A DNA stretch of 64,000 nucleotides from Armatimonadota bacterium (GTDB taxonomy: Bacteria; Armatimonadota; SYMT01): positions 32,001 through 96,000 of the forward strand of contig JAWLHY010000004.1 in assembly GCA_041690135.1 (NCBI GenBank). The letters run 5' to 3'. The notes below the pieces were generated by a model. The model saw nothing but the letters and a program-made list of their open reading frames with translations, had not been told where the DNA came from and ran no database searches. Shown here one piece after another: positions 14,729 to 25,920 of this stretch (its first letter is position 1; every line of letters begins with the position of its first letter). Both the position numbers and the translations under genes were made by a program.

Positions 14729-15364
14729 TCAATACGGACGCACGCTGAAGTCTCCGAGCGTCAGCGTCCAGCTGTCCCGCTGGTTTTCTGCCAGGAAACG
14801 CAGGACCGTTTCGCCTGCCAGGGCCGTGGCCATCAGGACCAGGTTGCGAGCCAGCGGGTAGTCGCAGACGTCGCCTGCGGCATCCGAGGGGACCCGGTAC
14901 TTTTCGTTCCAGATGACTTCAGCGTAGTCCGCGTTCAGGCCAACGTGCAGGCATGGCAGGCCCTCGCGCTCGCAGTGGTCGGCCACCAGACGACGGGAGA
15001 CGCTGTTGTCGAACCCGTCGACCACCAGGTCGGCGCCGGTCAGGAGTTTCCGGACGTTCTTCTCCGTAAGCTCCTTCGCTACCGCCTCGATCTCCACGCC
15101 AACCGCCCGAAACAGCAGGTGCTGGAGCGTCTCCGCCTTGAAGCCGCCCACGTCGTCGAGTGTCCACACCTGGGTGCTGACGTTATGCTCCTCGACGCGA
15201 TCGCGGTCGATGACGCACAGGTTTCCGGCGCCCTGCCGCGCCAGGTTCTCCGCCAGGTTCGACCCTACGGCCCCGGCACCGCATACAATGATTCGAGCTT
15301 CCGTCAGGCGAGCCATCACCTCCGGCCCGCGATAGATCTGTTCGTGGTGGAATTTCGTAGCCAT
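14729..15364 (-). CDS. ThiF/E1-like adenylyltransferase
   Basis: GAGAVGS nucleotide-binding loop, IDRDRVEEHNVSTQ, VVDGFDN, C-terminal DVCDY; start trimmed to MATKF. Confidence 0.9.
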   Translation of the reverse strand: MATKFHHEQIYRGPEVMARLTEARIIVCGAGAVGSNLAENLARQGAGNLCVIDRDRVEEHNVSTQVWTLDDVGGFKAETLQHLLFRAVGVEIEAVAKELTEKNVRKLLTGADLVVDGFDNSVSRRLVADHCEREGLPCLHVGLNADYAEVIWNEKYRVPSDAAGDVCDYPLARNLVLMATALAGETVLRFLAENQRDSWTLTLGDFSVRPY

Positions 15365-15404
15365 ACTCAGTACCCCCGGTTCCGTACGCCCGGTTCCGAA
15401 TTGA

Positions 15405-15627
15405 ACCGCCAAGACGCCAAGAACGCCAAGAGGGAAGAAGGGAAGTGCCAAGAAGAGAATGTAGGTAGCTCCGGATAGAGCGCCTGTTGTGCTCCGCCTA
15501 CACTAACTACCTGACGTATGCCCGTAGCTGCGTGCTGATTTGTCACCGCCAAGCACCAACTAAAAGCCATCCCATCCTCTTCTTCCACTCTCCTTTCCGA
15601 ACTTGGCGCTCTTGGCGTCTTGGCGGT
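15405..15627. repeat. Inverted-repeat element built from CGCCAAG-containing units (REP/MITE-like)
   Basis: ACCGCCAAGACGCCAAGAACGCCAAG (15405-15430) versus CTTGGCGCTCTTGGCGTCTTGGCGGT (15602-15627), with purine/pyrimidine-rich inner arms. Confidence 0.7.
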
Positions 15628-15639
15628 AAAGAGAGCACC

Positions 15640-16548
15640 CTAGCGGCGGCGCCGCCGCCGGCCTCCCGGCGGGTGGATCTCCCGGTAGACTTCCTCCGGC
15701 AAGCCGTGGTCGCCGCCGACGCGGGTCAGGTAACCCCGCTGCCCCTCGCGGATCACGCCGACCAGGCTGGTAAGGTCGAACTTCTCATCCTCGCCGGAGA
15801 GGCAGATCCCCGCCAGCATCACCGACAGGTCGTTCTTACGGACCGTCGCGGTGTGGGTCTCCCCGTCCACCGTAAAGGTCACGGCGTAAACGTCCTTCCG
15901 CTCGACGAAGCCGCGAAACTTCCCGTTCGCGTGATTTACCGCGGCCTTGAGGCGCTCCTCGGTGCTGTCACGCTGTTCCTGCTCGCGCAGCAGAAGCTGC
16001 CACTCGTAGGCCAGCCGCTCCTGTGGGGTCAGCGACGCCTTCCGGAGGTCATCCGGCTTGCGCCCTTCCTGGAGCGACTCCCGGAGGTAAGCCGCTATGG
16101 ACGGGCTCCGGCGGGGGTTGCGGCCCTCGACAAAGAACCGCGAGCCATCCCAACGCGCTCGCACCGTGTCGAAGACCTGGACCTCTCCCGGCAACAGGAC
16201 CGGCACCAGCCCGTCGAGCCGGAAGCGGGTGTCCGAGCCTTCGGCAGCCAATGCCCACCAGCCGTCCGCACGCTTCTCCGTAAGCACCAGCGACACCGCG
16301 GGAAACAGCCGGAGATACTCCCGGATCTGGCGCAGGCGCGCGGCCCCCACCACCCGCGCGGTGTGGGAGTCCTCCGGCTTCAGGAGCGCCCAGCCCTCGA
16401 AGTCGCGGGGCGCGACCTGAAACTTCCAGACGATGCCGGCAACCCGTACCTGAACCCCGGCCCCTTTCAACACCGGAGCCACGAAGGTGCTCTCCAGGAA
16501 ACTCTGCTCTTCCTGAGTCATTCGCCGCAGCAACTCCCGCACATCCAT
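15640..16548 (-). CDS. Hypothetical protein of the TROVE operon; possible E2-like C-terminal domain
   Basis: GAGG RBS; co-oriented with the operon; its only Cys lies in AGICLSGEDEKFDLTSLVGVI. The ORF is solid; the E2 call is inference. Confidence 0.7.
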   Translation of the reverse strand: MDVRELLRRMTQEEQSFLESTFVAPVLKGAGVQVRVAGIVWKFQVAPRDFEGWALLKPEDSHTARVVGAARLRQIREYLRLFPAVSLVLTEKRADGWWALAAEGSDTRFRLDGLVPVLLPGEVQVFDTVRARWDGSRFFVEGRNPRRSPSIAAYLRESLQEGRKPDDLRKASLTPQERLAYEWQLLLREQEQRDSTEERLKAAVNHANGKFRGFVERKDVYAVTFTVDGETHTATVRKNDLSVMLAGICLSGEDEKFDLTSLVGVIREGQRGYLTRVGGDHGLPEEVYREIHPPGGRRRRRR

Positions 16549-16559
16549 CGGAAATTCCT

Positions 16560-17327
16560 CTACTCCACGGGCTTCTGCCCCGTGATCACAAGACGGCGGC
16601 TCTCCAGGGTGAGCCGGCTGCCGTCGAGCCCACCGTAGACGACCACCCCCGCCAGGCCGGCGGAACGGAACATCGCCGTCAACTCGGCGGCGGTATACAG
16701 GCGCAGCGAATGACTGAAGCCCGAGCGGCGCCCATCCGGATAGATCAGCGTTCCCTTCACCTCCTGGCGACTGGTCGGGAGATCAAACGACCGCTCTTCC
16801 AGGACCAGGGTGCCGTCTTCCAGGCGCTGCACGCCGCTCTCCGCGAACCGGCGCAGGAGGCTGTCGCGATGGATGATCTCCATCAAGAACACGCCACCGG
16901 GTTTGAGGGCACGCACCACTCCCTGGAGAACCTTCTGATCTTCCGCCTCGTCTTCCAGGTAGCCGAAGGCGGTAAAGAGGTTGACCACGGCATCGAAACA
17001 GCCCTCGAAGGGGATCCGGCGCATGTCACTCCGCACCCACTGCACCTCCACGCCTTCCTCCGCAGCGTTCGCCTGCGCGTGGCGGAGGAAGCATTCACTC
17101 AGGTCGAGCCCGGTCATCCGGTAGCCTCGCCGGGCCAGTGGAACGGTATGCCGGCCGTGACCGCAGCAGAGATCGAGGAGGCGGCTTCCCGGCGACAGCG
17201 CCAGCAGTTCGCACACCCCCTCGACCTCCGCGGTGGTCCGCTCCGGAGTCAGCATGGGCGAGTAGCGCTGGAGGTACTCCTCATTGAAGATCTGCTCGTA
17301 CCAGGGGGTTTTCTCCATCGCTTGCAT
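16560..17327 (-). CDS. Class I SAM-dependent methyltransferase
   Basis: LLDLCCGHGRH, GLDLS, DMRRIPF, FTAFGY, ALKPGG; start 17327 or 17318. Confidence 0.9.
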   Translation of the reverse strand: MQAMEKTPWYEQIFNEEYLQRYSPMLTPERTTAEVEGVCELLALSPGSRLLDLCCGHGRHTVPLARRGYRMTGLDLSECFLRHAQANAAEEGVEVQWVRSDMRRIPFEGCFDAVVNLFTAFGYLEDEAEDQKVLQGVVRALKPGGVFLMEIIHRDSLLRRFAESGVQRLEDGTLVLEERSFDLPTSRQEVKGTLIYPDGRRSGFSHSLRLYTAAELTAMFRSAGLAGVVVYGGLDGSRLTLESRRLVITGQKPVE

Positions 17328-17470
17328 CTCCGCTCGCTCCACACCTTTATCGGAGGGGTGTGGGGGTGTGGGGGTGTGGGGGTGTGGAAGAATGGGAGAG
17401 TTGTTGCCCAAGTGGGGCTCCCTATCTCCCATTCGTCCCCCACCCATTCGTACCGAGTTTTCGCACCAGA

Positions 17471-18433
17471 TCAGGCGGCCGCCTCTTCCAGCAGCATCGC
17501 CCGGTAGACGCGACCAAGGGTCTTGCTGATCGCACTTCGGATGAGCTTGTCGTCGAACCCTTGCTCATGGAGCGCCTGCCACTCGGGCTCGCACTCCTTA
17601 CGAAGGTCATCGATCATCGCCGGCACCAGGCGCGGCATATCGGTCATGTCGCCGGCCACGGTCACGCCGGTATCCCGCAGGCGCCCGAGAGCGTTGATGA
17701 CACGCCCCCGCACGACGAAGGTTCGTGCGAACGTCTCGACCGGAGTCAGGTCGGGACGCTGCTCCCGGATCGACTGGCGGGAAACCTCCGCAAAGCGCTC
17801 GCACTTGTGCTTGACGATCAGCCATTCGCCGAACACGTTCCGCAGGAGCGGGTTGGAGCGGAGGACCACCCCTTCCATCAGGTTGGTCTCGCCGGCCACC
17901 CCTTGCGCCAACCCTTCCGGAGAGACGCGCTCCAGAAGGGCGTTGAACGCCTCCAGACTCGGCTCGCCGCGCCAGATTTCCGCCACCCGCGGCAGACCCG
18001 CCGCGTCGCACAACTCCACGAAGAGCTCATAGGTAACGAACGCCTCGCCGATGCGGATGTCGAAAGCCCGGAACAAGATGCGGTCGTCGGAGACGTAGCG
18101 CACGCCCTTCTGGATGCCGGCTCCGCAGATCTCGCCGTAAACCACCACGCTGCCGTAGCCGCGCTCGCGGAACAGGGACCCCAGCTTTTGGAGAAGTTCC
18201 GGACGCTCCTTGAACCAGCGCACCGGGCGCCCCGCGTAGAACTCATCGCCGCCGGAGGTTCCGAACTCCTCGTTGCGGCCTCCGTATTGGACCTCGTCAA
18301 TGGAGGTCATCCCGGCGGGAAAGTAGACCCGGAAGTTCGTGCCATGCAGTTTCTCCGTGGCGATGACTTCCTTCACCGCCAGCAGTTCCCGCCGTTTCTC
18401 CAGGCCCACGATTTCCGGGTACTTGTAGAACAT
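17471..18433 (-). CDS. ATP-dependent RNA ligase, Rnl2 family
   Basis: Motif I EKLHGTN, III YGEICG, IIIa FRAFDI, IV EGVVLR, V IVKHK, plus a C-terminal helical domain; GGAGG RBS. Confidence 0.9.
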   Translation of the reverse strand: MFYKYPEIVGLEKRRELLAVKEVIATEKLHGTNFRVYFPAGMTSIDEVQYGGRNEEFGTSGGDEFYAGRPVRWFKERPELLQKLGSLFRERGYGSVVVYGEICGAGIQKGVRYVSDDRILFRAFDIRIGEAFVTYELFVELCDAAGLPRVAEIWRGEPSLEAFNALLERVSPEGLAQGVAGETNLMEGVVLRSNPLLRNVFGEWLIVKHKCERFAEVSRQSIREQRPDLTPVETFARTFVVRGRVINALGRLRDTGVTVAGDMTDMPRLVPAMIDDLRKECEPEWQALHEQGFDDKLIRSAISKTLGRVYRAMLLEEAAA

Positions 18434-18689: not shown

Positions 18690-20318
18690 TCAGGAGGACC
18701 GCCGTACCGGCAGCGGGTACTCCATGATCTCCATCAGCATCTCGGTCCGCGAGGACTGCGAGAGCATCGGGATCAGGTTCGGCAGCGCGTAGTAATCGCC
18801 GCTGAACTGGAAAGCATCGGCCGCGAGACCGGCTGCCTTCATCTGCGTTTCAAGCATCTGCGAGGCCCCCCGCGTCTTCACGAAGCAGACATTCGGGTCC
18901 GCGTTGAGCTCCTCGCGATACTTCTGCAGCGACTGCGTGAAGCATGGCGGCGTGTTCTCCCCCTCGTCGGTGACCAGGATGATCTGCTCCACATACTGCC
19001 GCTTCTGCCGCAGGCGCTCGATACCCACGCCACAGGACGTCCCACCGCCGGCTTTCACCCCCGCCAGCGCCTTCTCCCAGGAGACCAGGTCCTGGCCCGC
19101 CGGTTCGATCTTGATGGCGATAGTGTCGAAGGCATAGACGTAGAGTTCGCTCTCACAGACGGTGCTGAGCATCGCCCCGATGCGCTTCCCCACCTCGATC
19201 GCCTCCTGCATCGACCCGGACTTGTCGATCAGCAGCGCGGTCGGCCGGGTGATCCGTCCCCGCAGCTTCACCTGGGCGTCGGTAACCTGGTCCAGCTTCT
19301 TCTCCAGGTCCGGATCGACGCCGGCCGCCTTCGCGGCTTCCTTCGCCTTGTAGGCAGAGACGCGCCGGTCGGTCTGCGCCCGCTCCAGCTTCTTCTCGAT
19401 GAGCGCCTTCAGGTCCGGGTTGTCCAGCGCCCCGCGCCGCTTCAGCGAACCGAGGTTGTTGATCAACTCCTGCGGCGTCATCGCTTCCACCAGCGCGACC
19501 AGCACCGTCGGCGTCATCTGGCGCACCGCCGACGACGCGATCCGGTACGGGATTCGGTGCTCCAGGATCGCCGCGGCCTGCTCCGCCGGCGTCGCCGCCC
19601 GCGCCAGGGCCTTCACCTGGAACAGCTTGCTGTCCGGAGGCGGGCTCTCCTCGAAGAGGATCGCCTGGGCTCGGTCGGACGGCGCGATGTGTGCCAGGGC
19701 ATAGAGTCGCTTCATCTGGCGGCGAGCCAGGGTCGCGCACTCATCGAACCAGGCCGGGTTCGCTTCCCGCTCTCGCAGGTAACGGCGCAGCTCCGTCTTC
19801 AGCGAGCGCGGCAGGTTCCGGAAGAGGCCCTGCTTGTCGAGCTTTTCCTGGACCACCGTCTCCACGGCCGCTCCCGGGGTTTCCGCCCCTACCCTCTGGA
19901 CAGCCTGTCCCTTGCGGCCCTTCTTCCCGCTGCGCTTCCGGCCCACCAGCGCGCGCAGCTCTTCGCGACGCTGCGTGGCATCCGGACGGACGCGCACCTT
20001 CCGGCGCTGGACCTTGCCGTGGATGAAATCCACCACCCGGCCGACCTGGTACGGCGGCATCCCCCGGAGCAGGGCCAGGCCGACATCCCGATGCCCTTCG
20101 AAGTCGCTCAAGACCAGGGTCGCCGCGAACATCTCCTTGTGGTCGCGCACCGCGCCGGTATCGGCATACCAAGCGGCCAGGTGCACGTAGAACCGCGGGT
20201 CCTGCTCGATCATGTCGGCATGCACGCAGTAGACCGACTCCAGGTCGCGGTGCGGGCACGCGAGCAGCGTGTTCAGGATCTGCAAACGGTTGTCCTGCTC
20301 GTTCATGGTCTGTTCCAT
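18690..20318 (-). CDS. Divergent TROVE/Ro60-like RNA-binding protein with C-terminal vWA domain
   Basis: Helical N-terminus with PRFYVHLAAW...VRDHK and QELINNLGSL; vWA MIDAS LIDKSGSM, GGTSCG, ILVTDEGEN; GAGGAGG RBS before ATG 20318; context of RNA ligase and tRNA-like RNAs. Confidence 0.8.
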   Translation of the reverse strand: MEQTMNEQDNRLQILNTLLACPHRDLESVYCVHADMIEQDPRFYVHLAAWYADTGAVRDHKEMFAATLVLSDFEGHRDVGLALLRGMPPYQVGRVVDFIHGKVQRRKVRVRPDATQRREELRALVGRKRSGKKGRKGQAVQRVGAETPGAAVETVVQEKLDKQGLFRNLPRSLKTELRRYLREREANPAWFDECATLARRQMKRLYALAHIAPSDRAQAILFEESPPPDSKLFQVKALARAATPAEQAAAILEHRIPYRIASSAVRQMTPTVLVALVEAMTPQELINNLGSLKRRGALDNPDLKALIEKKLERAQTDRRVSAYKAKEAAKAAGVDPDLEKKLDQVTDAQVKLRGRITRPTALLIDKSGSMQEAIEVGKRIGAMLSTVCESELYVYAFDTIAIKIEPAGQDLVSWEKALAGVKAGGGTSCGVGIERLRQKRQYVEQIILVTDEGENTPPCFTQSLQKYREELNADPNVCFVKTRGASQMLETQMKAAGLAADAFQFSGDYYALPNLIPMLSQSSRTEMLMEIMEYPLPVRRSS

Positions 20319-20341
20319 CGGGGACCTCCTCGTCCACATCA

Positions 20342-20490
20342 GGCCCGTACAAGTCGCTGGAGCGATTTAGACGTACAGGTGCTCTTCCACTGAGCTACGC
20401 CGGCAAGCAACGCCGGCGGCAGGACTCGAACCTGCGACCCCCCGGTCCGCAACCGAGACGTTTGTAAGCTCCCACCATAGGGTACGGGCC
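20342..20490 (-). ncRNA. Y-like scaffold RNA 2 carrying a circularly permuted tRNA-Arg(GCG) mimic
   Basis: Order: outer stem, anticodon arm CUCGG-UUGCGGA-CCGGG, GGGUC, T arm GCAGG-UUCGAGU-CCUGC, acceptor hairpin CGCCGGC-7 nt-GCCGGCG, D arm GCUC-AGUGGAA-GAGC, outer stem. Confidence 0.85.
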
Positions 20491-20492
20491 AA

Positions 20493-20564
20493 TCGGGGTG
20501 GGAGGAATCGAACCTCCGACATCGTGTACCCAAGACACGTGTTCTACCACTGAACTACACCCCG
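20493..20564 (-). tRNA. tRNA-Pro(TGG), no encoded CCA
   Basis: Full cloverleaf CGGGGTG/CACCCCG; anticodon loop CT-TGG-GT; A73. Confidence 0.92.
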
Positions 20565-20583
20565 TCCGCTCTCCTCACATTGA

Positions 20584-20794
20584 GGCTCGTGCAAGTCGCC
20601 GCAGCACTGCGTTTTTCGTTCCATGGACAGTCCGCCGGTGAGCTCTTACGCACTCTTTAAAGGGTGGCTGCTCTTGAGCCGACCTCCCGGGTTCTCTCCA
20701 TCCACTTCCCTTAGCGCCCGCCGGACTGCCTCTCGCCCAGCGGCCCATTTCCTCTCGTACTCGGTTTGTATGCTGCGCCCGTAGGGCACGAGCC
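20584..20794 (-). ncRNA. Y-like scaffold RNA 3 carrying a sarcin-ricin loop and a 23S H42-H44 (GTPase-associated centre) mimic
   Basis: Same outer scaffold; AGUACGAGAGGA at 20750-20761; 56-nt H43-H44-like segment at 20635-20690. Confidence 0.85.
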
Positions 20795-20816
20795 GCGGCG
20801 ACCCTGGCCGCCGGAA

Positions 20817-20890
20817 TGCCGATGATAGGATTCGAACCTACAACCAACAGGCTCTCGACCTGCCTCCTCTACCGATTGGGATACACCGGC
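20817..20890 (-). tRNA. tRNA-Leu(GAG), atypical (C33, short variable loop), no CCA
   Basis: GCCGGTG/CATCGGC acceptor, Leu-type D loop, anticodon loop TC-GAG-AG, A73. Confidence 0.75.
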
Positions 20891-20928
20891 ATCGCCCCAA
20901 TTCGGCCCCGCAACTGCGCGGCGACCGA

Positions 20929-21002
20929 TGCCCGCGGAGGGATTCGAACCCCCAACCTCCTGGTTCTAAGCCAGGCGCCTCTGCCAGTTGGGCTACGCGG
21001 GC
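20929..21002 (-). tRNA. tRNA-Leu(TAG), short variable loop, no CCA
   Basis: GCCCGCG/CGCGGGC acceptor; loop CT-TAG-AA; A73. Confidence 0.88.
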
Positions 21003-21014
21003 CTGAAAAATCCA

Positions 21015-21088
21015 GGCGAGTGGTGGGCCTCGAACCCACAACCTTCGGCATATGAGGCCGCTGCGCTCGCCAATTGCGCCACACTCAC
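21015..21088 (-). tRNA. tRNA with CAT anticodon (Met or Ile2), atypical, no CCA
   Basis: GTGAGTG/CACTCGC acceptor; loop CT-CAT-AT; G27:A43 mismatch; C at position 73. Confidence 0.75.
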
Positions 21089-21109
21089 TCAAAAAGAAAC
21101 GGGGCCAAG

Positions 21110-21180
21110 GGTGTCGGGAGGGAATCGAACCCTCATCGGCAGGGCCACAACCTGCTCGCTTCCCATTAGCGTACCGACAC
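21110..21180 (-). tRNA. tRNA-His(GTG), G-1 not encoded, no CCA
   Basis: GTGTCGG/CCGACAC acceptor; loop TT-GTG-GC; C73. Confidence 0.88.
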
Positions 21181-21181
21181 A

Positions 21182-21254
21182 CGGGGCTGGCGGGACTCGA
21201 ACCCGCGGTCTTCACCTCGACAGGGTGCTATGTTGACCACTACACCACAACCCC
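21182..21254 (-). tRNA. tRNA-Asp(GTC), no CCA
   Basis: GGGGTTG/CAGCCCC acceptor; loop CT-GTC-GA; G73. Confidence 0.88.
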
Positions 21255-21350
21255 AAGTGCTGCCCCCGGCATGGGGCAGCGAAGAAACTTGCATTCCAGA
21301 TTGTCAAAGAACGGTGCCGTAAACGCTCGCGCGTTCGCGGATCCCGGTTA

Positions 21351-21422
21351 CTCCGGCGGCAGGATTCGAACCTGCAGCCCGCGCCTTAACAGGGCGCCGC
21401 TCTACCGTTGAGCTACACCGGA
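21351..21422 (-). tRNA. tRNA-Asn(GTT), no CCA
   Basis: TCCGGTG/CGCCGGA acceptor; loop CT-GTT-AA; G73. Confidence 0.92.
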
Positions 21423-21435
21423 CCAGTTTTCAAGT

Positions 21436-21509
21436 TGCCTCCGGTGGGATTCGAACCCGCACTGAACCGCTCTTAAGGCGGTTGGCTCTGCCAATTGGCC
21501 TACGGAGGC
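21436..21509 (-). tRNA. tRNA-Leu(TAA), short variable loop, no CCA
   Basis: GCCTCCG/CGGAGGC acceptor; loop CT-TAA-GA; A73. Confidence 0.88.
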
Positions 21510-21525
21510 GCTATTCAATTTCCAA

Positions 21526-21599
21526 CAGGGAAGAGAGGATTCGAACCTCCGACCTCCGGGTCCGCAACCCGGTGCTCTATCCAGCTAAGCTACTCCCCC
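21526..21599 (-). tRNA. tRNA-Arg(GCG), no CCA
   Basis: GGGGGAG/CTTCCCT acceptor; loop TT-GCG-GA; A20 in the D loop; G73. Confidence 0.88.
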
Positions 21600-21604
21600 A
21601 AATT

Positions 21605-21740
21605 TAGCGGCGCGCAAGTTCAAGAAGCTGAAGTTCCGGATTTGAACCGGCACCTCCTGAGTAAGGATCAGGTGCTCTACCTTTGAGCTATTCGCTTGTG
21701 AAGCGAAGTTTGTAAGCTTCTCCGTTTGGGCGCGCCGCCA
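21605..21740 (-). ncRNA. Y-like scaffold RNA 4 carrying a circularly permuted tRNA-Lys(CUU)-like mimic
   Basis: Order: outer stem, acceptor hairpin UUCGCUU-CAC-AAGCGAA, D arm GCUC-AAAGGUA-GAGC, anticodon arm CCUGA-UCCUUAC-UCAGG, T arm CCGG-UUCAAAU-CCGG, outer stem. Confidence 0.85.
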
Positions 21741-21747
21741 GCCAAAT

Positions 21748-21981
21748 CTATCCGAACACGGCCTCGGGCCTTACGGTCCAATTTCCGCTTTCGTGATGCT
21801 CGACCACGTACTCTTCCAGTTCGCGGCTGGGCAGATCCAGATAACGAGCCAGCGCTACACGGACGTGGTAATCGCTCATCGGCTCGCCCACCCGCAACTC
21901 ACGCAGCGGAATATCGAAACTACGCCCCCGATAGCGAACGTGCAGCACTGCTTCCTGACGATTTCGCACTTGCTGAGCCAT
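21748..21981 (-). CDS. Small protein ending in ...EAVFG, candidate ubiquitin-like modifier
   Basis: AGGAG RBS; 77 aa; strand-strand-helix-strand-strand pattern; terminal Gly; first gene of an operon that contains an E1. Confidence 0.7.
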   Translation of the reverse strand: MAQQVRNRQEAVLHVRYRGRSFDIPLRELRVGEPMSDYHVRVALARYLDLPSRELEEYVVEHHESGNWTVRPEAVFG

Positions 21982-22001
21982 TTCTTTCTCCTATCCAGTC
22001 C

Positions 22002-22044
22002 AAAAATACCGAAGCCCCGAGGTCCGGATGGACCTCGGGGCTTC
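22002..22044 (-). terminator. Attenuator terminator A
   Basis: 15-bp hairpin GAAGCCCCGAGGTCC/GGACCTCGGGGCTTC followed by GGTATTTTT, just upstream of the first operon gene. Confidence 0.75.
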
Positions 22045-22071
22045 TACGCAAAGCCACTGCAGCCAAAATAG

Positions 22072-22230
22072 CTACACCGGAGGTCCTATCTGAATATTGC
22101 GATCACTTCGCCGCGGGAGATGTCCGGGGTTGACGGCATTACCCAGCAGCACAGCCAGATTCAGCAAGGAGCTAATCATCCCTGTCTGAACGTTCTTCTT
22201 ATTGATCTGCGTGTAATCCATCCAGCCCAT
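22072..22230 (-). CDS. Putative leader peptide A (52 aa, ends IQIGPPV-stop)
   Basis: First in-frame ATG downstream of the promoter at 22271-22298; the GPP codons are complementary to the 5' arm of terminator A. Confidence 0.6.
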   Translation of the reverse strand: MGWMDYTQINKKNVQTGMISSLLNLAVLLGNAVNPGHLPRRSDRNIQIGPPV

Positions 22231-22270: not shown

Positions 22271-22298
22271 ATTATAGATGCATTCTCCGAAGAGTCAA
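22271..22298 (-). promoter_or_regulatory. Sigma70-type promoter A
   Basis: TTGACT-N16-TATAAT on the minus strand. Confidence 0.7.
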
Positions 22299-23131: not shown

Positions 23132-24490
23132 ATGAAGATGGGCAGAGCATCAGCGATTGCGGACATGCAGGAACCGGTGGAAGCGAGCGATGCACTGGAA
23201 CTGCTGTGGGACGAAGAAACGGATCCCGGTCTTCCCGAAATGGATGACTTGCCGGCAGAGGGAGCCGATCCGCGGAGCCCCACCGCATCGGAATTGCCGG
23301 TCCGGATTGCAGCCCTGGTCCGCCGCTGCGCGCCGTTGGAGCCAAAACCGCTGCTAAAGCCGACGCCGCGCTCCTATCAGGACGAGGCTCTGGCGGCCTG
23401 GCTGGAAGAAGGGGGCCGTGGCGTGGTGGTCCTCCCCACCGGAGCGGGCAAGTCGATCCTGGCAATGATGGCGGTAGTACGCCTGGGGGTGCGTCCGCTG
23501 GTCGTCGTCCCCACGCTGGAACTCCTCAAGCAGTGGGCCGAAGGTCTTTCCACTCATCTGGGGCTGCCCGCGGAGAGTGTCGGCGTCGTGGGCGGCGGTG
23601 CGCGCCGCATCGGCCCGGCCACGGTCATCACCTACGACTCCGCCTGGCGCCGGCCACGCGACCTGCGGTCGTTCGGGTTACTGGTCTTCGACGAAGTCCA
23701 TCACCTCCCCGCGGCTTCTTACCGCCGCATCGCGGATGCTTCGGAAGCACCGTTTCGCCTCGGCCTTACAGCCACCCCCGAGCGGGGTGACTTCCGCCAC
23801 AGCGACCTGGATGAACTGGTGGGACCGGTAGTCTTCCGTCGCTCGCCCGCGGAACTCTCACGGAGCCGGCACATCGCGCGCTTCCGCCAGGAGCGGCTCT
23901 TCATCGAGCTCACGGAAGAGGAAGAGTTCGAGTACCACCAGCTTATGGCGCAATTCAAGTGGTACATGGCGCAGAAACGGCTGTGGGGCCAGGGCTTTCA
24001 GCGACTCGTCTTCCGTGCTGCCTCCGATCCCGGGGCGCGGGAGGCGCTGCGGTGCCACCAGCGAGCCCGGCAGGTCGCCCTCAATGCTTCCCGGAAAGCG
24101 ACCGAGGTGCTGAATCTCCTCCAGCGTCACACCGACGACCGGGTGCTCATCTTCTGCGAGTTCACCTCCGTGGTGGATAGCTTGAGTCGCCAGCTACTGC
24201 TTCCCTCCGTCACCTACCGCACCCCGCCCGCGGAGCGACGCCTGACCCTGCAGCGCTTCCGCAGCGGCGTTTACACGAAGCTGGTGACCGGACGGGTGTT
24301 GAACGAAGGGGTCGACGTGCCGGACGCCAATGTCGCCATTGTGGTCAGCGGCAGCTCCACGCCCCGCGAGCAGATCCAGCGTCTCGGGCGAGTACTGCGC
24401 CCCAAAGAGGAGGAAGCAGTCCTCTACGAGTTGGTCGCGCGGGGAACCGTGGAAGAGCGCGCTGCCCGCGCCCGCAAGGTCCGGGACTGA
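23132..24490 (+). CDS. XPB/Ssl2-like superfamily II helicase
   Basis: PRSYQ, LPTGAGKS, FDEVHH, LGLTAT, EGVDVP, QRLGRVLR. Confidence 0.92.
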   Translation: MKMGRASAIADMQEPVEASDALELLWDEETDPGLPEMDDLPAEGADPRSPTASELPVRIAALVRRCAPLEPKPLLKPTPRSYQDEALAAWLEEGGRGVVVLPTGAGKSILAMMAVVRLGVRPLVVVPTLELLKQWAEGLSTHLGLPAESVGVVGGGARRIGPATVITYDSAWRRPRDLRSFGLLVFDEVHHLPAASYRRIADASEAPFRLGLTATPERGDFRHSDLDELVGPVVFRRSPAELSRSRHIARFRQERLFIELTEEEEFEYHQLMAQFKWYMAQKRLWGQGFQRLVFRAASDPGAREALRCHQRARQVALNASRKATEVLNLLQRHTDDRVLIFCEFTSVVDSLSRQLLLPSVTYRTPPAERRLTLQRFRSGVYTKLVTGRVLNEGVDVPDANVAIVVSGSSTPREQIQRLGRVLRPKEEEAVLYELVARGTVEERAARARKVRD

Positions 24491-24558
24491 GCTGGGGAAG
24501 GGAGCTGGTGAGGGGTGAGTGGTGAGTGGTGAGTGGAATTTGGAGAGGCGAAGCGGAG

Positions 24559-25920
24559 ATGAGTTTTCGATTGGTGGATTTGAAGAAGACGGTACGCAAG
24601 GGGAAGGACGGCTACCAGGTAACTCCCGCGCGCCTGGAAGGGCGCCAGGAGCAGTACCGGATTGAGTTCCTGCTGGGGCAGTTCGAGCAACACCTGGGAC
24701 AGCCCCGGAAGAACCTGGACCCCGCGGTCTTGCTGGATTTCGTGGGAGACGCTCGGATCGGGCGGGGTCTCCTGGCCACCCTTTCGCAGTGGTACCGCAT
24801 GCGGCCGCGCACGTTCACGGAAGTCCTCACAGCACCAGGGCCGGAGAAAAGGGCACGGGGTCGCGGAGATATAGCGGGCGATAAGAGCAGCGATGAACGT
24901 CTTCGACACCTGGCGGAGCTGGGCATAGAGGGACCCGCCGACCTGCGGGCCTGGTTGTATGCCGCCGTGAACCGGGGAGGCGGCGGGTTTCTGGCCCCGG
25001 CCGACGAAACACTCTTTTGGAAGATCCAGGCCCGCGCGCTGGGAATCGGCCGGGAAGAGTTGGAGCTGATGATGCTTCTCGATCGTACCGAAGAAGCGGT
25101 CCTGGTGCGCACCGGTCCGCGCCCCACGGCGGCGGATGTGATCGCGGCCTATAACGCCCGCGCCCACACAACTCTACTCCGCTCCTGCGCGGAACTCACC
25201 CTCCGGTGCGATGGCCGGCGCGAAGCCCTCGCAACGGCCCTGGAGAGTTGGGCCGCTCCGCTGGGTGTAGAGGGGCGGGTGGATGGCTCCTGCGTCACGC
25301 TCCTTGGCCAGGCGGACGTCCTGGGCTGCTGGACGCGTCACGGTCGCAAGCTGGAACGAGTGGCTCTCGAACTCCTGGGCCTACCGGAGCTCCAGGTGCG
25401 AGAGGCGCGTGGTCTCCTGGGTATCGGAGAACGGGAGTGCGGCTTCGCCTGGAAAGGAGAGACCCTCGCCCTCCTGACCGCCGGAAGCGAATGTCCGCTC
25501 CGCCATGAGCCGCTGGAAAGGATCGAGGCGCTTGCGACCGGCCTCCGGCGTCTGCGAACGGAAACGGATGGAGGCATTTCCTGGGGCGTACGGCGGCCGG
25601 GTCAGCTCCTCGGCGTAGCCGGCGGCGCCTGCCTTCCCCATCTGGAGCTCCGCTACAACGATCTCGCCCTCTACCTCCGGTTGACAGAGGCTGGAGAGGG
25701 TGCGCAGTGGCCTCGGACCTTCGCCGGCAAGACCCCGATCGGATTGATCGAGGGAAAGTCGGGAGACACCGCCACGCGCGTCCACCTCGCCGGGGCCGAG
25801 CCGCGATCATGCGAACTGGGGGACCTGGGAGCTCTCCTTCGCGAACATTGCTCACGGCTGGCCCCTGAACTCTACCCACAGCCCCGCGCGACCGGCCGGC
25901 AACTCCCGCAAGCCGCGTGA
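24559..25920 (+). CDS. DUF790/Bax1-like protein with a degenerate nuclease motif
   Basis: Directly follows the XPB-like helicase; IGRGLLATL, IAAYNARAHTTLL and TRHGRKL resemble DUF790 blocks. Confidence 0.6.
   Translation: MSFRLVDLKKTVRKGKDGYQVTPARLEGRQEQYRIEFLLGQFEQHLGQPRKNLDPAVLLDFVGDARIGRGLLATLSQWYRMRPRTFTEVLTAPGPEKRARGRGDIAGDKSSDERLRHLAELGIEGPADLRAWLYAAVNRGGGGFLAPADETLFWKIQARALGIGREELELMMLLDRTEEAVLVRTGPRPTAADVIAAYNARAHTTLLRSCAELTLRCDGRREALATALESWAAPLGVEGRVDGSCVTLLGQADVLGCWTRHGRKLERVALELLGLPELQVREARGLLGIGERECGFAWKGETLALLTAGSECPLRHEPLERIEALATGLRRLRTETDGGISWGVRRPGQLLGVAGGACLPHLELRYNDLALYLRLTEAGEGAQWPRTFAGKTPIGLIEGKSGDTATRVHLAGAEPRSCELGDLGALLREHCSRLAPELYPQPRATGRQLPQAA

Follow-up and report, generated by a model that had tools for sequence, protein, structure and literature searches.

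A Y-type RNA beside a divergent Ro60 gene probably carries a mimic of the ribosomal factor-binding site

The 64,000-nt stretch of contig JAWLHY010000004.1 (positions 32,001 to 96,000 of the forward strand) from the Armatimonadota bacterium assembly GCA_041690135.1, referred to here as the window, contains on its minus strand a 211-nt element in which the sarcin-ricin loop (SRL) and the GTPase-associated centre (GAC) of 23S rRNA are joined in one scaffold, and which is called the SRL-GAC RNA. In the ribosome, the SRL and helices 42 to 44 (H42, H43 and H44) jointly make up the site at which translational GTPases dock and are activated. The balance of the evidence favors a structured Y-type RNA whose tRNA-like module has been replaced by a mimic of this rRNA factor-binding site. 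That the element is a real, selected Y-type RNA with an rRNA mimic is held with high confidence, since recurrence in seven loci, covariation and a coordinated change in a tertiary base triple argue for a selected mimic and against an accident. The first-pass annotation had read the element as a selected mini-mimic acting as a decoy or tether; its view of a selected mimic and its hint at a TROVE locus both held up, while the role is kept in graded form below. The parts of the RNA are as follows.

20584 to 20794, minus strand: whole SRL-GAC RNA, 211 nt, bounded by stem P1 (from six homologues and a seven-sequence alignment)
20786 to 20794, minus strand: 5′ strand of P1, GGCUCGUGC, pairing with 20584 to 20592
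20778 to 20785, minus strand: 5′ side of the internal loop, CCUACGGG, following the 5′ strand of P1
20771 to 20777, minus strand: 5′ strand of stem P2, CGCAGCA, with its partner UGCUGCG at 20600 to 20606
20762 to 20770, minus strand: junction, UACAAACCG, preceding the SRL
20750 to 20761, minus strand: SRL dodecamer, AGUACGAGAGGA, an exact match
20718 to 20743, minus strand: variable hairpin after the SRL (RNAfold)
Between the variable hairpin and the GAC arm, minus strand: purine-rich linker
20623 to 20705, minus strand: GAC arm (Rfam large-subunit rRNA match and alignment to real 23S)
20698 to 20705 with 20623 to 20630, minus strand: H42-like helix of the GAC arm, GUGGAUGG/CUGUCCAU, followed by a purine-rich loop
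20635 to 20690, minus strand: base of H42 with H43 and H44, a 56-mer within the GAC arm
Between the GAC arm and the 3′ strand of P2, minus strand: linker
20600 to 20606, minus strand: 3′ strand of P2, UGCUGCG
20593 to 20599, minus strand: 3′ side of the internal loop, GCGACUU
20584 to 20592, minus strand: 3′ strand of P1, GCACGAGCC

The coordinates and letters first assigned to the 211-nt RNA were correct on re-reading of the sequence, and its end points follow from the closing helices GGCUCGUGC/GCACGAGCC and CGCAGCA/UGCUGCG. The scaffold is thus made up of P1, an internal loop (CCC(U/C)AAC-like on the 5′ side and (G/A)ACUU on the 3′ side), P2 and a UACAUAC-like junction. The six relatives are about 225 to 255 nt in length, compared with 211 nt in the window.

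Six homologues were found, all with the SRL-then-GAC order, one from another Planctomycetota genome (G388), two from cyanobacterial plasmids (L060 and L062) and three from metagenome contigs (L054, L055 and L056), which brings the total to seven loci in at least two phyla; the SRL/GAC motif expected by the first-pass annotation in homologous loci therefore recurs. Thirty loci around Ro60-like genes, equal to 22 distinct places, were scanned for the SRL with at most one mismatch and a GAC 16-mer with at most three, and one further SRL-GAC RNA was obtained, that of G388, about 70 nt downstream of the Ro60-like gene and on the same strand, so that SRL/GAC inserts at other TROVE loci were indeed encountered. 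The three metagenome contigs were retrieved by a pattern of the SRL plus part of H43 70 to 100 nt later. Of these, L054 harbors 12 tRNA genes in 5.1 kb and L056 contains 20 in 3.5 kb, with tRNAs directly abutting the SRL-GAC RNA; altogether, three of the seven members lie inside a tRNA array. A plasmid BLAST with the L054 RNA gave the full-length relative L060 on plasmid pAfl69 of Dolichospermum flos-aquae, and L062, on plasmid pA of Kovacikia minuta, was reached by tblastn with a neighboring 302-aa protein alone (called DUF here); L060 and L062 are close kin. Over the 401 Planctomycetota genomes sampled, a broader SRL-GAC pattern matched two, the source genome (also labelled G000) and G388, with no match in the reversed control. 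The pattern of the SRL plus part of H43 had no match in viral contigs, and a single viral contig match to CATACA followed by the SRL was taken as chance, there being no GAC arm downstream in the stretch read. Twelve records matched in the phage database, most of them short or annotated as 23S (two were inspected), and a search of genome contigs with the Ro60-like protein gave one locus (L023), with neither a tRNA nor an rRNA-like RNA.

The alignment of the seven members (A4), in which 32 specified base pairs were scored, revealed that 91.5% of the pair cells are paired, against 79.3% in shuffles (0 of 500 reaching the observed value) and 32 to 45% with slid partners. Compensatory changes on both sides were observed in 15 of the 32 pairs, a number also reached by none of 500 shuffles, with P1 contributing seven of its ten pairs and P2 three of its six. 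RNAalifold on A4 recovers P1, P2, the base of H42, H43 and, in H44, the two pairs that close the loop; a five-sequence alignment supplied the two lower pairs of H44. Within the GAC arm, the pair 1053:1106 is U-A in L060 and L062, 1054:1105 is A-U in L056, and 1058:1080 occurs as three pair types; in the window RNA, both 1054:1105 and 1058:1080 are G-C, as first noticed. Residue 1072 is U with U1092-A1099 in L060 and L062, and C with C-G in the other five. Natural rRNAs also include a U/U-A version, which restores folding. Position 1072 with 1092-1099 forms a tertiary base triple of the authentic GAC, where the triples are G1071 with G1091-C1100 and C1072 with C1092-G1099, according to the available portions of PMC8614978 and PMC2952862. 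Residues A1070, G1071, G1091, A1095, A1096 and C1100 are invariant in the seven members. The pairs of the H42/H43/H44 three-way junction are thus kept and covary, with the triple residues either invariant or changing together, and the covariation preserves the stem as well as the authentic secondary and tertiary pattern of the GAC. When the arm was folded in isolation, the canonical three-way junction was obtained for the window, L054, L055 and L056, and a partial one for L060. A hairpin after the SRL is predicted by RNAfold in all seven members, with unrelated sequences.

The resemblance to real 23S was also assessed directly. The Rfam bacterial large-subunit (LSU) model (RF02541) matches 20623 to 20705 on the minus strand with 54.3 bits, above its cut-off of 50 (E 2e-13, model positions 1077 to 1160), and the own-genome Rfam search returned an identical match; the Kovacikia member scored 55.1 bits. 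This match was absent from Rfam searches of the sub-ranges 19800–22200, 20560–20820 and 1–21100, which was treated as a filter effect. Since the match covers only 84 of 2925 model positions and the SRL lies 5′ of the GAC at a distance of 60 to 85 nt, the element is no full-length LSU in native order. BLAST of the spacer that holds the RNA against 60 relatives gave matching stretches 77 to 92% identical, and of the seven loci tested out of 21, six were genuine 23S and one (L022) had no RNA family match. The GAC arm aligns gap-free over 89 columns with 14 real Planctomycetota 23S segments, and the alignment includes the helix GUGGAUGG/CUGUCCAU and its purine-rich loop, which bears out the proposed likeness to H42. 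In line with the earlier estimate of 44 identities in a gap-free 56-mer, the alignment to 23S of an E. coli-labelled record came in one piece with 80.4% identity, about 45 of 56. No true 23S was found in the source assembly by the own-genome search, and the relatives' 23S was used for comparison. The E. coli residue numbering used here agrees with the residues named in the available portions of PMC8614978 and PMC2952862.

Two features set the mimics apart from real 23S. An AAC-C before and a CGGAG after the base of H42 are common to the seven mimics and absent from all 14 real segments, and position 1061, which is U in 14 of 14 real 23S, is A in four of the mimics and G, C and U in one each. 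According to the available portion of PMC6239185, an A at 1061 makes the tertiary fold of the isolated GAC more stable in a Mg-dependent way, and a free-standing GAC domain might need such stability. The derived features common to the mimics suggest a single origin followed by horizontal spread. These features bear on the reading of the element as neutral debris, namely captured 23S pseudogene fragments or a chimeric assembly. Such a reading could draw on the identity of 79 to 92% between the GAC core and the phylum's real 23S and on the lack of a true 23S in the own assembly for comparison; but the permuted order is kept in seven loci of two phyla with compensatory changes, and the derived features are not those of real 23S. 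In addition, an independent 151-nt contig of another public run, 93% alike, covers 20689 to 20839, with tRNA-Leu at one end, the SRL in between and the beginning of the GAC arm at the other; by bridging these junctions it argues against the chimeric assembly that had been considered at the outset. The run is flagged as probably DNA and carries no information on starts, ends or strand. Debris or artefact is therefore regarded as extremely improbable.

Some matches to the GAC part only were also noticed. A stretch of 38 nt that resembles H43 and has 87% identity to the window arm occurs in Pseudomonas phage Milchi (PQ464597.1, 79150–79187; L058 2501–2538), within some 500 nt of DNA that looks non-coding, just before a tRNA-Met in this 175-kb tRNA-rich phage, and a similar one occurs in phage Astolliot (OM982621.1). 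The Milchi look-alike has no SRL and no H44, and may represent another kind of phage RNA that mimics rRNA. The family profile also matched, over the GAC part only, unannotated stretches of the 13-kb plasmid3 of Leptolyngbya boryana (L061 2851–2937) and of Paenibacillus phage Pd_22F (L059 2351–2436), with nhmmer scores of 57 and 66 bits, respectively; true 23S fragments, contamination and further mimics are all candidates for these two.

The universal SRL dodecamer named at first reading, AGUACGAGAGGA, was found exact at its position on the minus strand and is the sole SRL match in the window at up to one mismatch. The dodecamer alone is not significant, since 13 of 100 shuffled windows held at least one match (0.14 expected). 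It is exact in all seven family members; the search pattern required the SRL for three of the seven, and the scan that gave G388 required it at up to one mismatch, while L062 (through the DUF protein) and L060 (through BLAST) were reached independently. A helix proposed by RNAalifold between the UAC of the junction and a GUA inside the SRL was rejected, since it shows no variation and its formation would abolish the SRL motif.

Thiostrepton is a ligand of the isolated GAC fragment, and an abundant free GAC could in principle soak up thiopeptides of the H43/H44-L11 cleft. Such an antibiotic sponge would agree with the equivalents of A1067 and A1095, both of which are A in the window RNA as the first-pass annotation had it, and with the kept tertiary core. 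The strictly conserved SRL and the Ro60-type stem would be left unexplained, the equivalent of residue 1067 is G in L055, and L056 lacks one base of that loop, so that a sponge is considered distinctly improbable.

The surroundings of the RNA, which bear on the Y-RNA scaffold and its likely partners, contain the following features.

20817 to 21693, minus strand: array of nine tRNA genes, upstream of the SRL-GAC RNA (Rfam and ARAGORN)
20565 to 20815, minus strand: tRNA-free spacer of 251 nt, containing the SRL-GAC RNA
20493 to 20564, minus strand: tRNA-Pro(UGG), 19 nt downstream of the SRL-GAC RNA (Rfam and ARAGORN)
20342 to 20491, minus strand: YrlA-like Y RNA with a tRNA-like module (Rfam YrlA below cut-off and stem motif scan)
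18690 to 20339, minus strand: gene for a 549-aa protein, predicted to be a divergent Ro60 (TROVE plus vWA; predicted structure)
17471 to 18433, minus strand: Rnl2-type RNA ligase gene (PF09414, 1.9e-19; TIGR02307 match below its cut-off)
16560 to 17447, minus strand: SAM-dependent methyltransferase gene (domain search)
15640 to 16548, minus strand: gene for the conserved 302-aa DUF protein (relatives by sequence; no family match)
14729 to 15451, minus strand: gene for a short ThiF/E1-like adenylyltransferase (PF00899, 1.7e-30)

The YrlA-like RNA scored 36.6 bits against the Rfam YrlA model (RF02553), whose cut-off is 69, over model positions 24 to 84, which correspond to the T arm, the acceptor-like stem and the D arm. 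Its stem, with GGCCCGUAC, CCUAUGG and UGGGAGC on the 5′ side and GCUCCA, GCGACUU and GUACGGGCC on the 3′ side, is built like that of the SRL-GAC RNA, two of the P1 pairs being compensatory. The tRNA-Arg(GCG) called by ARAGORN at 20411 to 20489 on the minus strand was rejected as a tRNA gene and is the tRNA-like module of this RNA. Tandem small RNAs upstream of the Ro60-like genes of relatives carry the same P1, loop, P2 and UACAUAC junction. A strict stem-motif scan, keyed on (G/A)ACUU followed by the P1 strand, over the window and 22 loci (168,532 nt) gave 23 RNAs against none in reversed controls. Of the 23, 19 belong to loci with a Ro60-like gene and share its strand; another two are those of the window, and the L056 contig is a locus without a Ro60-like gene. 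As to their inserts, four carry an SRL, 13 have T- and/or D-arm signatures and six are other, with seven of the RNAs scoring as sub-threshold YrlA at 32 to 43 bits. The stem common to the SRL-GAC RNA and the YrlA-like RNAs marks the former as a probable paralogue within a Y-RNA family of modular build.

Some loci carry two to four Y-like RNAs of one stem type in tandem upstream of the Ro60-like gene, namely L032 572–1123, L033 2959–3799, L035 715–1021, L036 2952–3239, L037 2970–3411 and L039 557–1011, and their modules comprise YrlA-like permuted tRNAs, near-complete tRNA bodies and small non-tRNA inserts. In one Planctomycetota family (L025, L027 to L030 and L044), no Y-like stem motif was found, and a tRNA-Ser and tRNA-Tyr pair with long variable arms lies directly upstream of the Ro60-like gene.

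Bacterial Y RNAs mimic tRNA, and the role of bacterial Ro60 is known mainly from Deinococcus and Salmonella. The SRL-GAC RNA is like YrlA and other bacterial Y RNAs (RF02553; Chen et al. 2014, available portion of PMC4201824) in that it is encoded beside a Ro60 homologue, has a long stem formed by its ends with a conserved internal loop, occurs with several paralogues per locus, and devotes the remaining RNA to a module imitating one of the RNAs used in translation. It differs in that YrlA mimics tRNA and the SRL-GAC RNA mimics rRNA (the SRL plus H42 to H44), in that it is often embedded in tRNA arrays, and in that its partner Ro60 has diverged too far to be matched by the Pfam TROVE model. 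The sequence of its internal loop also differs from that of canonical Y RNAs. It is best read as a known type, the tRNA-mimicking Y RNA, with a new rRNA-mimic module.

The TROVE hint was confirmed by the predicted structure of the neighboring 549-aa protein. No Pfam or NCBIfam match was obtained for it, and the comparison with PDB sequences gave a TROVE protein at E 0.005. Its AlphaFold model (pLDDT 84) matches the Ro60 fold: Foldseek ranks 1 to 12 are all Ro60/Rsr or TROVE over the full length, the best being 9nfa_A (E 3.9e-12, TM 0.62/0.64), followed by vWA domains. The protein has at least 2765 relatives and is present in 20 of the 401 Planctomycetota genomes. A Ro60-like gene lies near the RNA in four of the seven members (window, G388, L060 and L062), and we infer that binding of the RNA by the Ro60-like protein is likely.

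The operon begins at 20339 on the minus strand, directly past the YrlA-like RNA and 245 nt downstream of the SRL-GAC RNA, and its order is Ro60-like protein, Rnl2-type RNA ligase, SAM methyltransferase, DUF and short ThiF-like enzyme. The distance from the end of tRNA-Leu(GAG), the last gene of the tRNA array, to P1 is 21 nt. Just ahead of the array, at 22271–22298 on the minus strand, is a strong match to a sigma-70-like promoter (11 of 12), and a GC-rich terminator-like hairpin of 15 bp (22011–22044, minus strand) comes about 230 nt after it; the two may belong to a short separate transcript. Divergent from the array, an XPB/ERCC3-type helicase gene and then a DUF790 gene are found at 23132–25920 on the plus strand.

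Genes for the DUF and the ThiF-like enzyme accompany the RNA in the same four members, and in G388, L060 and L062 they lie directly 3′ of it; between the window and L060, the DUF proteins are 36% and the ThiF-like enzymes 51% identical. A Ro60-like gene followed by the DUF gene on the same strand was seen at 13 of 24 places (mostly with 1.5 kb of flank), and the ThiF-like gene follows at six of these 13, with the DUF running off the locus end at five of the other seven. At least 1053 relatives of the DUF were identified, with AGICL...FDL.SLV.V.RE as an invariant motif; searches of Pfam, NCBIfam and PADLOC gave no match for it, and the protein atlas gave no usable one. Its model contains β-barrels, for which Foldseek returned nothing at E ≤ 0.001 and VIA-align gave weak OB-like matches (Z 5–6). 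In PADLOC-DB 2.0, the methyltransferase is similar to mad2 and the ThiF-like protein to generic E1-E2 models, with no match there for the Ro60-like protein, the RNA ligase or the DUF. Other genes differ between loci. In L062, a nucleotidyltransferase of the PolyA_pol/CCA type lies between the Ro60-like gene and the RNA, and in L054 a NADAR gene follows the RNA, with an MNT/HepT pair and a microbial PARG-like gene before it, beyond four tRNAs; the NADAR and PARG-like proteins count as ADP-ribose hydrolases. A further protein of about 290 aa occurs between the Ro60-like gene and the DUF in L062 (3889–4761, plus strand) and L036 (446–1501, minus strand), the likeness being judged by eye in the translations.

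The position of the RNA relative to the DUF gene raises the question of a cis-acting 5′ leader, through which binding of a ribosomal protein or factor would control the genes for the DUF and the ThiF-like enzyme. The L062 RNA stops 3 nt short of the DUF start codon, a GGAG that precedes this codon lies in the 3′ strand of P1, and the DUF start follows the RNA by about 33 nt in G388 and about 85 nt in L060. However, the window RNA has tRNAs on both sides and is 4 kb away from the DUF gene, no DUF is found near the RNA in L054 or L056, and the stem is common to the free-standing YrlA-like RNAs, which makes a leader improbable. Leaders of ribosomal-protein operons, such as the L10 leader, are short, partial rRNA mimics in mRNA leaders. 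The SRL-GAC RNA is similar to L10-type leaders as an extra-ribosomal RNA that imitates an rRNA protein-binding site of the stalk region, but it has no ribosomal-protein gene nearby, an LSU score above the gathering cut-off and an added SRL, and no Rfam leader family is among the matches listed for the window RNA.

Several observations weigh against a Y-type RNA with a folded rRNA mimic and have to be set beside the evidence given above. Regarding the structure, the whole RNA has a minimum free energy no better than shuffles (z = −0.59), the isolated arms of G388 and L062 give no canonical fold, and H44 of G388 is partly disrupted in its lower pairs. A helix of only about 3 bp, which varies among the members, closes the SRL, so the SRL fold of this RNA is assumed. 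As for the family, conservation of the SRL and of the fixed part of H43 in L054, L055 and L056 is there by construction, as the search pattern contained them, and the same three members have no Ro60-like, DUF or ThiF-like gene within 2.5 kb, two of the contigs being short (for the Ro60-like gene, 1 to 5 kb of sequence was covered). The family is rare, at two of 401 Planctomycetota genomes. With respect to the Y-RNA assignment, the SRL-GAC RNA gave no YrlA match at E up to 10, and at 211 to 255 nt the family has twice the length of known Y RNAs, which measure 80 to 130 nt (available portion of PMC4201824). Lastly, no RNA run is listed as containing the SRL-GAC stretch.

With regard to function, a role as decoy or sentinel is ranked first, as a tentative possibility. 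It is favored by the spare tRNAs, ADP-ribose hydrolases, ligase and nucleotidyltransferase nearby. RNase P and RNase Z, by processing the tRNAs on either side, would release the RNA from the tRNA-array transcript, as proposed from the tRNAs 21 nt upstream and 19 nt downstream and from the abutting ones in L056. A Ro60-like ring would then hold the stem, and the module would fold alone, like the isolated 58-nt GAC fragment, and present a surface for L11 and the L10 stalk, GTPases or toxins. In this form it could serve as bait for attackers of the factor-binding site, such as SRL RNases, rRNA ADP-ribosyltransferases and thiopeptides, with damage to the bait coupled to the RNA-repair and quality-control enzymes of the operon. 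An SRL placed beside the stalk base might also catch factor-dependent attackers, a possible reason for joining both elements. As examples of such attackers, SRLase1 cleaves the SRL and needs EF-Tu, and Tre23 ADP-ribosylates H44, both according to the available portions of the respective reports. Taken as a whole, the picture of a free-standing mini factor-binding centre, in which L11 and the L10-L7/L12 stalk sit beside the SRL and engage GTPases or toxins off the ribosome while the Ro60-like ring, together with the ligase, the nucleotidyltransferase and the DUF/ThiF-like enzymes, reads out or repairs what befalls the bait, is put forward as a speculative and rather doubtful model.

Next in the ranking comes a tether or platform, by which the module would recruit L11, L10-(L7/L12) or a translational GTPase, bringing the Ro60-like ring and partner nucleases or repair enzymes to them, or would act as a buffer for their free pools; this corresponds to the classical picture of a Y RNA as tether and gate. 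Part of H42 is kept, as is the tertiary core of the L11 site, and position 1061, A in four of seven mimics, fits a free-standing protein-binding domain, given the stabilization of the isolated GAC by A1061 described in PMC6239185. Known Y RNAs also tether Ro60 to effectors, according to the available portion of PMC4201824. On the other hand, no ribosomal-protein or factor genes were seen in the loci examined, and tRNA arrays beside ADP-ribose hydrolases fit a conflict setting better, so that a tether is thought somewhat unlikely. The leader, sponge and debris readings rank lower than the decoy or sentinel and the tether.

Comparison with known systems places the RNA between several of them. 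In 23S, the SRL and the GAC are about 1600 nt apart. The SRL-GAC RNA shares with H42 to H44 and helix 95 of 23S a gap-free match of about 85 nt, the same helices, the tertiary residues, the covarying triple and the exact SRL 12-mer, but it holds the two elements in reverse order and close together, its H42 is truncated, its SRL-closing helix is very short, 1061 is mostly not U, and the AAC-C and CGGAG around the H42 base are specific to it. Apart from the partial LSU match, no Rfam family covers the RNA, and no description of an SRL or GAC mimic RNA was found in the literature, most subscription journals and supplements lying outside the search. The tRNA-array setting has a parallel in supernumerary tRNA gene arrays, which are horizontally spread and in Anabaena are induced when translation is impaired; a non-tRNA, rRNA-mimicking passenger is not described in the available portion of that study.

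If the Y-type reading is true, the Y scaffold would be a general display stand for mimics of translation RNAs, and the biology of Ro60 would be tied to the ribosomal site of ribotoxins, rRNA ADP-ribosyltransferases and thiopeptides. The setting of the RNA suggests that tRNA arrays carry more than tRNAs. A conserved, uncharacterised trio of Ro60-like protein, OB-like DUF and ThiF-like enzyme, with more than 1000 members, is also flagged by this analysis. A compact, naturally optimised RNA of about 220 nt that may form both elements by itself would be useful for studies of factor recruitment, toxin recognition and antibiotic binding without ribosomes, and two of the hosts are cultured cyanobacteria, in which the claims are directly testable. 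Should the mini factor-binding centre prove true, it would amount to an RNA-based surveillance of the ribosome's most vulnerable site, spread horizontally together with spare tRNAs.

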